From Escherichia coli (GTDB taxonomy: Bacteria; Pseudomonadota; Gammaproteobacteria; Enterobacterales; Enterobacteriaceae): a stretch of DNA of 64,000 nt. A program made the position numbers and the translations under genes. The stretch is taken from NCBI RefSeq assembly GCF_003018115.1, contig NZ_CP027457.1. One strand, 5' to 3'. Under the pieces are notes generated by a model, which saw only the letters and a list, made by a program, of their open reading frames with translations, ran no database searches and was not told where the DNA came from. The first letter of the stretch is position 1, and each line of letters starts with the position of its first letter. This document shows, in pieces, positions 4,575 to 16,403 of this stretch.

Positions 4575-4638
4575 CGTTATTTTTATCGCACAAGGGTGGG
4601 CATCCCTGCCCGTAATGACGTCCCTGAACCTGGGTAGG

Positions 4639-5187
4639 TTATTGATACTGAACCTTGAAGGTCGCATCCGCATTAGCTGCGCCAGGGGTTGCGACACCGG
4701 TTGCATAATAACGCGCCTGGAACGGAATGGTGTTAGTACCGTTATTCAGGGTTGTTTGCTCACTGAATGTCGCACCATCCAGCGTCAGCGCAGCACCCGT
4801 TCTGTCCAGGATCTGCACACCAACGTTTGTTGCGCTACCCGCAGCTGAACTCTGCAGAGCCAGAACGTTGGTATGACCCGCATCAATCGCCGTACCTAAA
4901 AAGGCAACTGCGGCTTTAGATGCAACATTGGTATCGCAATCATTCAGCTGAATGTTAAAACCGACAGCAGAACTGGTTGCTCCTTCCTGTGCCAGCGATG
5001 CGGTACGAACCTGTCCTAACTGAACGGTTTGATCAACAGAGCCTGCATCAACTGCGCAAGCGGCGTTAACAACTTCCCCTTTAAAGTGAACGGTCCCACC
5101 ATTAACCGTCGTGGCAGCGGCCAGAGCCGCTGTAGAACTGAGGGACAGAGCCGACAGAACAACGATTGCCAGAGTTTTAATTTTCAT
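4639..5187 (-). CDS. fimA: Type 1 fimbriae major subunit FimA
   Basis: Track ORF 4639..5244; start [23 protein letters not shown] at 5187 gives a 182-aa major pilin. Confidence 0.92.
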
Positions 5188-5667: not shown

Positions 5668-6264
5668 TCAAACCTCTTCTCTTTTTAATTTTTCGTTTAT
5701 GAGATTATTTCTTTCCCATAATCCGGCAAAACGAGCAGCATTACTGGCGGTATAACGCACAGTATGGCGAATATTTCGATGCCCGAGATAATCCTGAATT
5801 AAACGAGTATCTGCACCACGCTCCGCCAGTTCATAACCGCAAGCATGCCTTAACATATGAGGATGAGTCTGCGTTACGGTTCCAGCTTCAATACCGGCAT
5901 CGCGAATAATGCGATAGGCCTGCTGGCGAGAAAGCCGACTCCCGCGGCGAGAAATAAATATGGCGTCGGTCCGGTCAGCGCCTTTCCAGTTAGCACGTTC
6001 CAGGGTCCAGCGTTCCACAGCTTCACGCTCATCAAAACGTAACGGGTGAACGGTAGAAAATCCGTTCTTCAGTCGGCGAATATTTATTCGACCTTCATTA
6101 AGGTCAAGATCCTGATAATGCAGATCAAGCAGTTCACTAATACGCATCCCATGCCGATATGCCAACAGAATAAGACAATAATCTCTGGCTCCCGTTGCCC
6201 CGTAACAAACCGCCTGCATCATGGCCTGAACTTCTTTACCGGTAAGATAACGACGTTTACTCAC
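5668..6264 (-). CDS. fimE: Tyrosine site-specific recombinase FimE (switch ON-to-OFF)
   Basis: 198-aa ORF starting MSKRRYLTGKEVQAMM with the conserved HxxR...Y recombinase C-terminus; adjacent to fimS. Confidence 0.93.
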   Translation of the reverse strand: MSKRRYLTGKEVQAMMQAVCYGATGARDYCLILLAYRHGMRISELLDLHYQDLDLNEGRINIRRLKNGFSTVHPLRFDEREAVERWTLERANWKGADRTDAIFISRRGSRLSRQQAYRIIRDAGIEAGTVTQTHPHMLRHACGYELAERGADTRLIQDYLGHRNIRHTVRYTASNAARFAGLWERNNLINEKLKREEV

Positions 6265-6741
6265 AATAGTAGTACTCCTGACTGAGATATATTTAAATGA
6301 ATACCTATAGGAAACCTCAATCGGTCAAAATTAGCCCAATAGATAAAAAGATAACCACACACGAAGTGATGTGGCTATCAGTCAATTACATTAAATATCA
6401 TACAAAAATAAAATATCACTGATGTGACAACATCTATTTTCATTGATTTGATTCAATATAACAATAGATTGCAGTAGATTAGCTTCCAGTTGCTTAAAAA
6501 ATAAAGAAAAAAGTGCGAAAACAGGAGAATTTAAGTGATGTGTAAATTTATGAATGATTTTGTTTATTTATTTTGAAGAACATAAACCATTGTATTTTGT
6601 ATGGATATGGTTAACTTAATGTTTATTATGATAATTAAGAATCATACTTACAATAACATCAATTAATAAATGCTTAATCATTTTTGATATATCGTAAGAA
6701 TAATGTTGTTTTTAACACCATCCCTGGTATCTCAACTATCT

Positions 6742-11839: not shown

Positions 11840-12769
11840 TTGAACAGCAGAAAATTTGCGAGCATGATCGCAATTATTTCACTGCCAGGGATATCAATGG
11901 CTTCCAGTAAATCGCTACAGCAGGCAATTGCCAACATAAAAATCTGGCACAAGGGTGAACAGCGCGCGCCGCATAAGCCATTGTTATTGCTATACGTATT
12001 AGCGGGATACCTGAATGGACATCCACGCCTTTTCGATTATGGCTCGGAAATCTACGAACCTCTGCACAGTTTACTGGAACGTTTTGGGCCACAGCGTTCA
12101 CAGTACCGACCTGATATGCCGTTCTGGCGATTACAAGGCGACGGATTCTGGCAATTACACAATGCCGAGCTTTGCTCAACAGCAGGGAGCAGCCGACAAC
12201 CGCCAGTGAAGGAACTGAACGAATACCACGTTGCAGGCGGTTTCGATGAACAGCACTACGCCCTGGTAACCGGCAATAAAAAACTCATTAATACTCTGGC
12301 ACAACAGATACTCGAAGCGCACTTCACCGAGAGTATTCAGGAAGAAATCGCTGACGAGTTGGGTTTTGACCTCCAGCAAATCCGTAAGCAACGCGACCCG
12401 TTATTTCGCAGACTTGTATTACGCGCCTATAACTACCAGTGCGCGATATGTGGCTTTAATATGCGCCACGATGACACTACCGTCGCGCTGGAAGCGGCAC
12501 ATATAAAATGGAAACAGCACGGCGGTCTTTGTGAAATTCCTAATGGCCTGGCGCTTTGCGCAATTCACCATAAAGCCTTTGATAAAGGATCGATTGGCCT
12601 GGACGAAAATATGCGGGTACTGGTATCAGATGCGGTAAACGGCGGAGGGATCGTTGAGAGATTATTCTGGGATTTTGACGGGAAAACTATTGCGTTACCA
12701 CAGGTGCGTAAAAATTACCCTTTTGAGGGGTTTGTAGAGTGGCATCGGAAAGAGGTTTTTAGGGGGTGA
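11840..12769 (+). CDS. HNH-motif endonuclease with an uncharacterised N-terminal domain (possible modification-dependent restriction-type nuclease)
   Basis: 309-aa ORF; C-terminal YQCAICGF...AAHIKW...LCAIHHKAFDKG is a Cys/His HNH-type motif. An alternative start MASSKSLQQ at 11897 has an AGGGA RBS. Family assignment of the N-terminal domain is not possible by eye. Confidence 0.7.
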   Translation: MNSRKFASMIAIISLPGISMASSKSLQQAIANIKIWHKGEQRAPHKPLLLLYVLAGYLNGHPRLFDYGSEIYEPLHSLLERFGPQRSQYRPDMPFWRLQGDGFWQLHNAELCSTAGSSRQPPVKELNEYHVAGGFDEQHYALVTGNKKLINTLAQQILEAHFTESIQEEIADELGFDLQQIRKQRDPLFRRLVLRAYNYQCAICGFNMRHDDTTVALEAAHIKWKQHGGLCEIPNGLALCAIHHKAFDKGSIGLDENMRVLVSDAVNGGGIVERLFWDFDGKTIALPQVRKNYPFEGFVEWHRKEVFRG

Positions 12770-12810
12770 GATTGATAACTATCGCAGTATGTTCAATATT
12801 GCTGACATAA

Positions 12811-12993
12811 TCAGTGCAGGATCTTGCCGCTAGTTTACAACTCGCCTTCGATAGCGGCGCAAAACGAGTTCTGTTGCCGATATCCTCGGCTATGGATATT
12901 CCAACAGTTCCGGCAGAGTTGTTTACCAAGTTTCAGGTAAGTTTTTTCTCAGAACCGGTTGATGCGGTTTATAAGGCGCTGGATGTGAATTAA
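12811..12993 (+). pseudogene. Remnant encoding the C-terminal ~60 aa of a Lon-like protease domain (BrxL/Lon-type)
   Basis: Frame opens just after a TAA at 12808-12810 and reads ...SGAKRVLLPISSAMDIPTVPAELFTKFQVSFFSEPVDAVYKALDVN*, which resembles the extreme C-terminus of Lon proteases (...GIKTVLIP...IP...V...EVL..AL). No upstream body of the gene is present. Confidence 0.5.
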
Positions 12994-13326
12994 CACATTC
13001 CTCAGCTTATTTACAAAAGGATTATTCCCATTTGATATAATATCAGTGCCAATTTACTTTTTTCAATGAAATATATCTCGGCTAAATAACAATAAAACTT
13101 ATCGCTAATGGATTAAATAAACAATTTTCTAATTCATTTCACCACCTTTGATATAGAAATTGATGGTGTTGTCGTTGCCATTGCTTATGGTGATGATAAA
13201 ATCCACGTTTCTGGATCGTTGCGTAGAAAATCATCACTGCCTTGATATTTTGATGCGATATAATCATACCGTTCCGTAGTACCAATTTCAATTTCAGGCT
13301 AAACCCCAACATTAAAAAAAATTAGA

Positions 13327-13375
13327 GTTATTCACTGATTATATTATATTATCAATAATATAATCAGTGAATAAC
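13327..13375 (-). terminator. Perfect 21-bp inverted repeat (7-nt loop) downstream of the 682-aa ORF, followed on the minus strand by a T8 run; probable intrinsic terminator
   Basis: GTTATTCACTGATTATATTAT / ATAATATAATCAGTGAATAAC arms read directly; T-run lies about 6 nt past the stem on the minus strand. Confidence 0.55.
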
Positions 13376-13397
13376 ATGGACTATATAATAAATTGCT

Positions 13398-15446
13398 CTA
13401 ATCATTTCCCTTACGAATATATGGGCCAAAAGCCCAAGAATCATAATAAGGGTGATGGACTAATTTTTCATTAAATCGAACACTATAAGTTAATTTTTTT
13501 ATATTTTTACGTACAGCATTAATACTGGGCAAAGAGGAAAGATAATCTATAAACTTATCGATAGTGATTTCCCCTTCGCAACACTCAAACCCATCAATGA
13601 TATTTTTCGCCATTTTTCCATTTTCATTTGTTTGATATATCACTCCAGGTATTCGTTGAAAAAAACTAGATAATGCATATTTGTCCGCTACATATGTATC
13701 ATCCACATGATATTTCCCACCGAGCATAGTTGTAGTAACAATAAGCTTATACACACCTTTGGGTTGCCATGTTGATGGTAGTTCGAATTCTTTAATGATC
13801 ACATCAAGATGATTAAGATAATGTTCAGAAATTCGATTTATTTGTTGAAAATAAGAACGCATAAATTTATTATTATGATCATGTATTAATGAGCTATCTC
13901 CAACGATGTTACACACTTGCTGATAGTACTTACCATAATATATTGGTTGACCATTTGATTTTAGTTCTGTAAAAATCAAAAAATCATCCAGGAGAATCAC
14001 GCAATCGCACTGATAATTAGCATGAGCATCAATTGAAGAAGCTTTAATCCCCGCATCACGAACTTGTTTTATAAATTGTTGCTCATGAAATCGCCCTTTA
14101 CTTGCTTGAGAAATTTTTTTGGAACCAAATAATGACATTAGAGAGCGAGTCACTGAGCTATTTGCTATTAATGCAGGCATTAAGCATAAACCGTCCATAC
14201 AGGGAATAAATGGGCAATCATTAAGATCATGTGATTTTGAATTGAAGGTAAAATAATCTATCAGTTTTTTTGCTGCATCCGCTGCAATCCCCTTACGTTG
14301 AAAGAATGATAACCAACTCTCACGGCTTTTTATGATCAGCCAGCGATCCAACTGTAGGGGTATAGGTTTTGTCGATGAAAATCTTTTGCTCATTTCTTCT
14401 TTAGATAACTCGACTAAACATTGATAAGCGTGCACCCAATTAAATAATGATATATTCCCATATTCTTCATGAAGGTCATCAGGAGACATATTTTCCAACT
14501 CGCTTAGATGAAATGAGCTAAAAACGCCATCAGAATTTAAGTAAGATGGCATATGATCCTTTACCCAACTATTTAGATGAAAATGTTTGTTACTAAATTC
14601 ATGAACTTCGCTATATAGATGTGACGCTCTCATCATTAGTCTATTTCTTGCAATCTCATAATCTCGGTATAAACAAAAACTATCAACCTCAAGAGAGTAA
14701 ATGTTATTATCCAATTTTGTAAATACTGCACTACTTAGTCTGAAAAAGTCTCTTACTCTGCTTAATGAGTCAAAAACATTCCACTCATTAAGGTACCCTC
14801 CCATTGAAAGCAAGGTTTGTTTATTCACACAAGAAGTTAGTTTCAATGGCCCATGAGTCCGTAAATAAGAAAATATTCTTCCGGTGTAATTGGCTACCTC
14901 ATCAAATGCCCTATCGATAACTCGAAAATATTCGATATCAGGTTCAGCATGAATATTAATATTTTCAGAAACGATAAATAATGGAAAAATCCTCTTCATT
15001 TTTTTAGGATCATTGACCACAACCAAGGATGATAATGATGATAAAAACATCTCACAAAACATGATGAGATTAAGTATTAATGCATGTGATTTTTTTGTAT
15101 TTTTACGCCAAATACCAGCACATTTTGTAGCCGCAAAGAAAGAATTATTTATATCATGCATAATTTTACATTGACTCTCGAACTCAGAGATTAGTTCAAT
15201 GTTATCAGGAAATGAGTTTACTAGCTCATTAATACATTTTTTGAATGTATTGTTATACTCAACTTCAGTCTGAACTGAAAATCTATTATAATAGATGGAA
15301 GATATTCTCAGCACATCCAAGGCGATATCTATACTAATATCATCTCTTTTTATGTACTCACAAAAAAAAGAACAAAACTGTTTCGGGTCGTTAGCAAGAT
15401 TACTAATTCTAGTAGTATCATAAACTTTTTCCATTTTTCCATACAT
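13398..15446 (-). CDS. Orphan AT-rich 682-aa protein of unknown function; candidate defence or nuclease protein with a possible PD-(D/E)XK-like motif
   Basis: Uninterrupted 2 kb ORF with RBS AGGA before the ATG; composition visibly far more AT-rich than flanking core genes; no Walker A, HNH or other motif I recognise except E~455 ... D~481 ... E494-L-K496 (QCDCVILLDDFLIFTELK). Confidence 0.75.
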   Translation of the reverse strand: MYGKMEKVYDTTRISNLANDPKQFCSFFCEYIKRDDISIDIALDVLRISSIYYNRFSVQTEVEYNNTFKKCINELVNSFPDNIELISEFESQCKIMHDINNSFFAATKCAGIWRKNTKKSHALILNLIMFCEMFLSSLSSLVVVNDPKKMKRIFPLFIVSENINIHAEPDIEYFRVIDRAFDEVANYTGRIFSYLRTHGPLKLTSCVNKQTLLSMGGYLNEWNVFDSLSRVRDFFRLSSAVFTKLDNNIYSLEVDSFCLYRDYEIARNRLMMRASHLYSEVHEFSNKHFHLNSWVKDHMPSYLNSDGVFSSFHLSELENMSPDDLHEEYGNISLFNWVHAYQCLVELSKEEMSKRFSSTKPIPLQLDRWLIIKSRESWLSFFQRKGIAADAAKKLIDYFTFNSKSHDLNDCPFIPCMDGLCLMPALIANSSVTRSLMSLFGSKKISQASKGRFHEQQFIKQVRDAGIKASSIDAHANYQCDCVILLDDFLIFTELKSNGQPIYYGKYYQQVCNIVGDSSLIHDHNNKFMRSYFQQINRISEHYLNHLDVIIKEFELPSTWQPKGVYKLIVTTTMLGGKYHVDDTYVADKYALSSFFQRIPGVIYQTNENGKMAKNIIDGFECCEGEITIDKFIDYLSSLPSINAVRKNIKKLTYSVRFNEKLVHHPYYDSWAFGPYIRKGND

Positions 15447-16123
15447 CCTATTGTCTAAATTACTATAAAACTAGCCACTTAACTAATAATTATAAATTTC
15501 ATCTTTTACACCTTGCATTTTTATAACCAATGAAATCTACAACAAGCAACTGATGGATAATCCGATATTGGTCGCATTTAATGGCATGGTAGCAAAGTTT
15601 TCATCACATACCTCCTTTGCACCAGAATAAACGCCAGAGACCTGAAATTGCGAGTACACTACAGAAATTGTACTGCCGGTCCCATCAGCATAAAACCATA
15701 GTTACACAGGTAATCATCATTATTCGCCAAGATAATAAATATTATTCGGTAGAATAGCGTTCTCAGGTGGTCAGTAAAATTGTCTTCAACAAGATGTCTG
15801 CGCATCTCGTCTGCTAGCCCTACATAACTGCTCTCGACCGAAACTATTTATTGAATGTTCACCAAGGTGGGCGTGGAGACAAAATGACGTCTTTTGATAT
15901 TAGCTACCTGAGCCACATGGTCAAAACGTTCAAGTAGCATAGCGAAACCACCCTGCCCACGTAATGTGGACGATGCAGCTTCCAGCCAGAGCAAACTTGG
16001 GACCATCGACTACAAAATGAAGAATACTGAACTGCTTTTCTGGCAGGCCTATATACTGCACGGATATGGGTGATTTCAGGCACAAAAAAAGCCGCCCTTA
16101 AGCGACTCGATTTGCATACGGTG

Positions 16124-16208
16124 TGGTGCCGAAGGCCGGACTCGAACCGGCACGTATTTCTACGGTTGATTTTGAATCAACTGCGTCTACCGATTTCGCC
16201 ACTTCGGC
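16124..16208 (-). tRNA. leuX: tRNA-Leu (leuX-type, CAA anticodon), 85 nt ending CCA
   Basis: Reverse complement reads GCCGAAGTGGCGAAATCGGTAGACGCAGTTGATTCAAAATCAACCGTAGAAATACGTGCCGGTTCGAGTCCGGCCTTCGGCACCA; type II tRNA with long variable arm. Confidence 0.9.
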
Positions 16209-16403
16209 ACTGAAGAGGTATGCGGAAAACGTTGTGGATTATACCTGTCGCACGCCACCATGCAAGCGCCAGCTTGCTCGCACCTCGCTAAGTGCTGAAA
16301 TTTTCAGCATTGCATACAGCGATGTGTAACCTTTGTCACACTCCAGGCACCCCGCCCTGCCATGCTCTACACTTCCCAGACAACACCAGAGAAGGACCAA
16401 AAA

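Follow-up and report, generated by a model that had tools for sequence, protein, structure and literature searches.

The window, a 64,000-nucleotide stretch of Escherichia coli DNA, contains the leuX tRNA-Leu integration hotspot of this species, which lies between ahr/yjgR and nanS/nanM/nanC/fimB. GC content is 30-38% at ~12800-15800, versus roughly 43-57% in the flanks. The islet found here is a mosaic of decayed defence systems. It carries an intact gene for a restriction endonuclease, remnants of two other genes and, on the minus strand, a gene for a protein of 682 amino acids (aa). A long palindrome lies just beyond the 3' end of this last gene. The coordinates of these features are collected in the table.

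Features of the leuX islet around the palindrome, in window coordinates
Feature	Coordinates	Strand	Basis or remark
Hairpin 5' arm as transcribed, sense GTTATTCACTGATTATATTAT	13355..13375	-	Sequence, pairing, RNA fold, allele alignment
Loop of the window allele, sense UGAUAAU, 7 nt	13348..13354	-	Includes the 5-nt ATTAT/ATAAT slippage unit
Hairpin 3' arm as transcribed, sense ATAATATAATCAGTGAATAAC	13327..13347	-	Sequence, pairing, RNA fold, allele alignment
Spacer UCUAA from stem base to U-run, 5 nt	13322..13326	-	Invariant in 37 sequences
U8/T8 run	13314..13321	-	Length polymorphic: T8, T7, T4, or A+T6
22-nt spacer from stop codon to hairpin	13376..13397	-	Holds the last stretch alignable with the 3' flank of the Salmonella homologue
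682-aa gene, PD-(D/E)xK nuclease family, ~33% GC	13398..15446	-	RefSeq call: 678 aa from 15434
Tail of the 682-aa gene's own segment past the U-run	13277..13313	-	Ends at junction 13276/13277
Degenerate 5' remnant of a PLD-like gene	13092..13276	+	ATG mutated to ATA, frameshifts; defines the boundary, outside the hairpin unit
3' remnant of BREX gene brxL	12817..12993	+	Annotated as a partial hypothetical protein
Phosphorothioate-DNA-binding HNH restriction endonuclease, intact	11897-12769	+	

The two remnants on the left of the palindrome correspond to ~180 nt from the end of brxL, in a BREX type 1 locus, and to ~185 nt from the start of a PLD-like gene. Intact brxL-PLD loci are present in other E. 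coli strains, and the remnants share ~84% identity with them. Homology to the brxL/PLD-like locus stops at 13276/13277, and a real recombination junction therefore lies at a distance of 50 nt from the palindrome. One and the same segment includes the 682-aa gene, the palindrome, the U-run and a further 37 nt. On the other side, strains carrying large leuX islands are homologous up to 16147, which is the end of the leuX att repeat (16124-16147), a 24-nt repeat of the tRNA 3' end.

Some smaller features of the islet were recorded along the way. A filler of ~30 nt (12786-12816) separates the brxL remnant from the conserved flank of the phosphorothioate-dependent endonuclease gene. It ends in ATAATCAGTG (12807-12816), a sequence that also occurs as 10 nt within the right arm of the palindrome. 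A 57-aa open reading frame on the minus strand (13139-13312) starts directly after the U-run. It was rejected as a gene: it is chimeric across 13276/13277, and its ATG is lost in 5 of 37 alleles. In some other E. coli strains (L002 and L004), part of nanM/nanS is replaced by a type II Zorya system (zorA2/zorB2/zorE), which directly adjoins the phosphorothioate-dependent endonuclease on its left. Exchange of defence genes takes place on the distal side of the hotspot.

The earlier note, which was made from the letters of the window alone, described the 682-aa gene as an orphan. This description does not survive an exhaustive HMMER search, in which 235 cluster representatives matched the protein at E <= 1e-3, most of them 640-690 aa long. 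Full-length relatives with 25-28% identity are encoded on Bacillus and Priestia plasmids, and no phage homologues were found. No Pfam model matches the protein, and PADLOC returned a marginal match only, to PDC-M29B. Residues D481, E494 and K496 are invariant in the family. A confident AF2 model has fold-level similarity to Upx, FokI, NucS, SduA and McrC, which are PD-(D/E)xK defence or restriction nucleases, and the protein carries the D...(D/E)xK motif on a restriction-endonuclease-like fold that marks the PD-(D/E)xK superfamily. A literature search with the accessions of the protein found no papers. Because the leuX neighbours include BREX remnants, a phosphorothioate-dependent restriction endonuclease and, in some strains, Zorya II, it is plausible that the gene encodes a single-gene anti-phage defence nuclease. 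This conserved and uncharacterized family is a more useful by-product of the analysis than the hairpin described below.

On the plus strand, the arms of the palindrome occupy 13327-13347 (GTTATTCACTGATTATATTAT) and 13355-13375 (ATAATATAATCAGTGAATAAC). Each is 21 nt long, the two are 100% complementary, and they are separated by the 7 nt ATTATCA (13348-13354). The perfect 21-bp inverted repeat reported earlier is accurate in its pairing, its loop and its coordinates. No close inverted repeat in the 64-kb window is longer, and the window holds no second copy of either arm. When the 3-kb AT-rich islet was subjected to 300 dinucleotide-preserving shuffles and searched for perfect stems with loops of 3-10 nt, the longest stem reached 12 bp (mean 7.6). 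By analytic estimate, ~1e-6 stems of 21 bp are expected per 64 kb. The palindrome at 13327-13375 is real and far beyond chance.

The 682-aa gene is the only gene that reads into this structure. Its stop codon is TAG at 13400-13398, and the hairpin begins 22 nt further on. Four of the 21 pairs in the stem are G/C; the base is a G-C pair, followed by five A-U pairs. A run of eight adenines on the plus strand (13314-13321) gives the U8 run on the minus strand, which is separated from the stem by the 5 nt UCUAA (13326-13322), and the sense strand across the end of the hairpin reads ...GAAUAAC / UCUAA / UUUUUUUU AAUG. The T8 run that had been placed after the stem on the minus strand is thus real, but it lies a short distance from the stem. 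Only the sense strand of the gene has a U-run after the stem. On the plus strand, the stem is followed by ATGGACTATATAAT, without a T-run.

A folding energy calculation, which the earlier note had proposed as a check, confirms that the hairpin is stable. The window allele folds alone as RNA at -24.7 kcal/mol and as DNA at -17.6 kcal/mol (z = -9.2), and the hairpin in a 111-nt RNA context gives z = -5.2.

The module is carried by about 339-341 of 5426 complete E. coli genomes, always at the same locus and with the same left junction; K-12 is without it. The carriers include O169:H41 strain 2014EL-1345-2, to which the window is 100% identical, O145:H28 RM9872 and APEC IMT5155. The hairpin is present in all ~339 carrier genomes and in all 27 metagenome contigs with the module, which were retrieved via an anchor inside the 3' end of the gene. 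The allele in the window, with its 21-bp stem and 7-nt loop, is found in only 3 of about 339 carriers. The common allele has one ATTAT unit fewer on the plus strand, (ATTAT)2 versus (ATTAT)3, and folds at -23.2 kcal/mol into a stem of 20 perfect pairs closed by a loop of 4 nt (sense UUGA). Slippage of 5 nt adds 3 nt to the loop (4 to 7 nt) and one pair to the stem (20 to 21 bp) and leaves the pairing unbroken. The 21-bp/7-nt form is best described from the aligned alleles as a slippage variant of a 44-nt palindrome, with perfect pairing in both.

Polymorphism was surveyed in an alignment of 38 sequences, which represent 20 distinct alleles, and variation was counted on 37 of them with contig L028 left out. 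Substitutions affect one of the 40 stem columns, a U to A change in L038 at the third pair from the base, in the 5' arm as transcribed. The UCUAA spacer has no variable column among its five. Elsewhere, substitutions affect 2 of the 4 common loop positions, 3 of 22 columns in the upstream spacer, 2 of 8 in the U-run (which also varies in length from T4 to T8) and 5 of 37 in the tail at 13277-13313, which was taken as the most polymorphic intergenic part. The last 60 coding bases of the 682-aa gene have 3 variable columns. For the stem against the other intergenic positions together (loop, spacers, U-run and tail; 1/40 versus 12/76), Fisher's test gives p = 0.033, or 0.09 without the loop.

These counts are modest, not decisive, evidence for constraint on stem pairing, given that the sampled strains are related and total diversity is low, about 1-4% over the module. 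The signal could reflect the kinship of the sampled strains. In addition, the palindrome is perfect, and its alleles show no evolution through G-U pairs of the kind that would separate selection on the RNA from selection on the DNA.

Outside this module, the palindrome was not encountered. A search for its core with a variable centre found no other context, yielding 1 contig among ~100,000 species-representative genomes and 4 in IMG/VR, and all five matches, a contig mis-binned as 'Lachnospiraceae' among them, are the same E. coli leuX module. Plasmid DNA contains no match to the 124-nt segment that includes the palindrome (13277-13400). When the region 12700-16300 was compared with Rfam 15 at E <= 1, only the tRNA-Leu was matched, and no RNA family was assigned to the hairpin. 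A dispersed repeat or mobile-element end (REP/BIME, MITE or IS end) was dismissed, as there is one copy per genome in a single context.

Homologues of the 682-aa protein with 41-75% identity occur in Salmonella, Izhakiella, Xenorhabdus, Pectobacterium and Pantoea and on one unassigned contig, and each is encoded by a solitary gene in an unrelated neighbourhood. The palindrome is in none of these loci outside E. coli. The 3' flanks of the genes in the five named genera are unrelated. In the case of the Salmonella homologue (75% identity), DNA similarity continues for ~20 nt past the stop codon and fades about where the E. coli palindrome starts. This Salmonella gene lies at the margin of a conjugative-element block (TraG-like, SLT) and has a small AT-rich hairpin 8 nt after its stop codon. 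The Pectobacterium homologue is followed by a conventional GC-rich hairpin and then a U-rich stretch. Such different 3' hairpins after homologous genes are expected for lineage-specific terminators and not for a site that moves genes.

A further palindrome lies near the Salmonella gene. The Salmonella enterica contig ABIEEP010000002.1 (L021) contains at 6237-6285 an AT-rich palindrome of 20 perfect pairs and a 9-nt loop, which is unrelated to the one in E. coli. It is located ~190 nt downstream of the homologue and abuts the 3' end of a convergent YebC/TACO1-family gene.

Canonical intrinsic terminators are defined by a GC-rich dyad, with G/C pairs above all at the stem base (10.1101/453969). 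Their stem runs straight into a U-rich tract of about 7-8 nt. The strongest termination sites show the motif GC(U)7RU (bioRxiv 10.64898/2026.05.29.728758), and Term-seq surveys report a median of 20-28 paired stem nucleotides, loops of 4 nt and a maximum in GC content immediately ahead of the U-tract (PMC12207403). The hairpin of the 682-aa gene agrees with this description in being an RNA stem-loop downstream of a gene, with a perfect stem. It departs from it in several respects. The dyad is GC-poor and has no G/C clamp at its base, and its 42 paired nucleotides (40 in the majority allele) are about twice the typical number. The U-tract does not follow the stem immediately. The first 9 nt past the stem include 6 U, and the tail weight is 2.28, versus 5.01 were the U8 adjacent. 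With the tail as it stands, a d'Aubenton-Carafa-type score comes to about -25; with an adjacent U8 it would be about +23. GC(U)7RU is matched in no phase, the sequence being AC-UCUAAUU-UU when phased on the stem and AA-UUUUUUU-UA when phased on the U8. A simple consensus scan, which is permissive, does list the hairpin as terminator-like.

One further pairing was considered for its ability to bring the U8 next to a stem. A closing helix of UUAGAG with CUCUAA would do so, but it needs a 20-nt asymmetric loop and is absent from both the MFE and the centroid structures.

The window also contains a canonical terminator for contrast. That of leuX itself, at 16089-16108 on the minus strand, has an 8-bp stem with 4 G/C pairs and a T7 run directly after it. 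It falls within a stretch of ~52 nt past the tRNA 3' end (16072-16123) that K-12 and many other strains also have, at ~94% identity.

The hairpin can be compared with three kinds of known RNA element. With Rho-independent terminators it shares a stable stem-loop soon after a stop codon on the sense strand, a strand-specific U8 downstream and a lineage-specific occurrence, with other hairpins at homologous loci. It differs from them in its long, perfect and A/U-rich stem, in the missing G/C clamp and in the displacement of the U8 by 5 nt. With 3'-UTR stabilizer hairpins, whether of REP/BIME type or engineered, it shares a long and stable structure at the mRNA 3' end, for which efficient termination is unnecessary. 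Stem-loops of this kind block PNPase and RNase II. The palindrome differs from REP/BIME elements in being single-copy and outside their repeat families.

The third comparison is with hairpins of the his-pause type. With RNA polymerase at the last U of the U8, ~13 nt would separate the RNA 3' end from the base of the stem. The spacing from hairpin to RNA 3' end is ~11-12 nt for a pause and ~8 nt for a terminator, and the value here is closer to that of a pause. In contrast to his-pause hairpins, however, the structure follows a gene instead of lying in a leader, and there is no downstream gene left to regulate.

The most probable reading, to which we assign a probability of roughly 0.6, is that the palindrome is the 3'-end hairpin of the nuclease gene's mRNA and functions as an atypical structure of its kind. 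The earlier note had offered an intrinsic terminator of the 682-aa gene as the simplest reading. That assignment is favoured by where the hairpin lies and which way it faces, by its stability, by its constant presence in the module and by the scarcity of polymorphism in its stem, but the GC-poor stem and the displaced U8 speak against a standard terminator. It is the UCUAA spacer that makes such a terminator non-canonical. Given the poor fit to canonical terminators, the hairpin is therefore probably a weak terminator, a pause site and/or a barrier to exonucleases.

According to this model, transcription of the minus strand would yield a 20-21-bp A/U-rich stem-loop of about -24 kcal/mol, beginning 22 nt after the stop codon and followed by UCUAA-U8. 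RNA polymerase would be expected to pause on the U-rich stretch. Some of the polymerase might terminate within the first U's, 7-9 nt past the stem. The RNA-DNA hybrid at that point would be UCUAAUUU(U), with a single G/C pair, which makes some release plausible. Regardless of how efficiently the transcript is released, the long hairpin could shield its 3' end from 3'-to-5' exonucleases and so stabilize it. The hairpin presumably arrived with AT-rich foreign DNA and is not a canonical E. coli terminator.

The hairpin carries little weight by itself. It offers an example of an AT-rich acquired gene with a long A/U-rich hairpin that is scored poorly by E. coli terminator rules. As such, it is relevant to terminator annotation in genomic islands and to modelling how termination proceeds when the U-tract is displaced.

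A rather unlikely alternative is that the palindrome has no function. In AT-rich foreign DNA, it might have been created or perfected by template switching, quasi-palindrome correction or ATTAT slippage and kept because the module is young, with transcripts ending elsewhere, for example at sites of Rho action. The poor agreement with canonical rules fits such an origin, as does a perfection over 20-21 bp that exceeds what termination needs. The stem contains short tandem ATTAT units with slippage polymorphism, and the low diversity of the module makes the absence of stem changes weakly significant. The 682-aa gene is frameshifted in several E. coli strains, and the unrelated palindrome in Salmonella suggests that such structures are common in DNA of this composition. 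However, if the palindrome were functionless, both its 22-nt distance from the stop codon and the strand-specific U8 would be coincidences, and the stem is less polymorphic than the neighbouring non-coding DNA.

It is improbable that the palindrome instead represents a symmetric pair of sigma-70 promoters, one directing antisense transcription into the nuclease gene from its 3' end and the other driving leftward transcription over the remnants. The idea arises from the majority allele, which reads TTCACT-N17-TATAAT on both strands, with a perfect -10 element, a 17-bp spacing and 4/6 matches at -35; the minus strand of the window gives a 10/12 match. Symmetry of this sort is automatic in a palindrome, however, and promoter-like matches are not enriched (19 versus 16.1 +/- 3.7 expected from shuffles). 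The window allele weakens the plus-strand -10 element to AATAAT with no sign of cost, and nothing identifiable lies downstream on the minus strand.

A related and very improbable proposal is that the palindrome exerts DNA-level control over an adjacent toxic nuclease gene. Control might be exerted either through a symmetric promoter pair with its antisense RNA or through a cruciform that is recognized by the gene's own PD-(D/E)xK product, whose nuclease core weakly resembles Holliday-junction resolvases. If true, the E. coli copy of this solitary defence gene, and no other, would carry a safety or regulatory device that acts in cis.

Equally little credence is given to a protein-binding or recombination site in the DNA that marks the edge of mobile cargo, which the earlier note had raised as its second possibility. 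A long, perfect and AT-rich palindrome does lie within 50 nt of a real recombination junction, and the point at which Salmonella homology fades coincides approximately with its start. The piece of its arm that recurs in the filler, ATAATCAGTG, is moreover beside the other brxL-remnant junction. This recurrence was rejected as meaningful, since a match of 10 nt is equalled in 8% of shuffles and is probably due to chance. When the boundary of the variable segment was located, as had been suggested, homology was seen to break at 13276/13277, which is neither in nor at the palindrome. The cargo-edge proposal is also contradicted by the single context of the palindrome in genomes and viral contigs, by the lack of plasmid matches and by the absence of the palindrome from homologous genes that have moved into five other genera. 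In addition, the stretch of the islet from leuX to the nan genes encodes no recombinase, transposase or integrase.

Two specific kinds of DNA site were compared with the palindrome by inspection and set aside. Integron attC sites resemble it in being palindrome-type sites at gene 3' ends, with the qualification that an attC site is an imperfect palindrome attached to a promoterless gene cassette. Their ends are RYYYAAC...GTTRRRY (inverse-core/core), with extrahelical bases. Here, the ends GTTATTC...GAATAAC are in reversed order, pairing is perfect without extrahelical bases, no integron integrase is annotated, there is no array, and other copies of the gene lack the palindrome. The sequence architecture does not fit a protelomerase-type (telomere-resolution) site.

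Several of the public sequences collected for this analysis have peculiarities of their own. Contig L028 (OKVG01001339.1) seemed to have a breakpoint inside the 5' arm of the palindrome. This is an artefact, as the continuation is the Nextera/Tn5 adapter CTGTCTCTTATACACATCT; in this public assembly, untrimmed adapter CTGTCTCTTATACACATCTGACGCTGCCGACGA is fused within the 5' arm at the contig end. The 4.2-kb contig L016 (SFGN01000178.1), which is labelled 'MAG: Lachnospiraceae bacterium', matches the E. coli leuX islet along nearly all of its extent at 98-99% identity and is almost certainly a mis-binned E. coli contig. In L018 (IMGVR_UViG_2617271340_000008), two adjacent BLAST alignments at ~4626-4848 cover the same 223 nt of the window (14753-14975), and this overlap suggests a tandem duplication inside the 682-aa gene.
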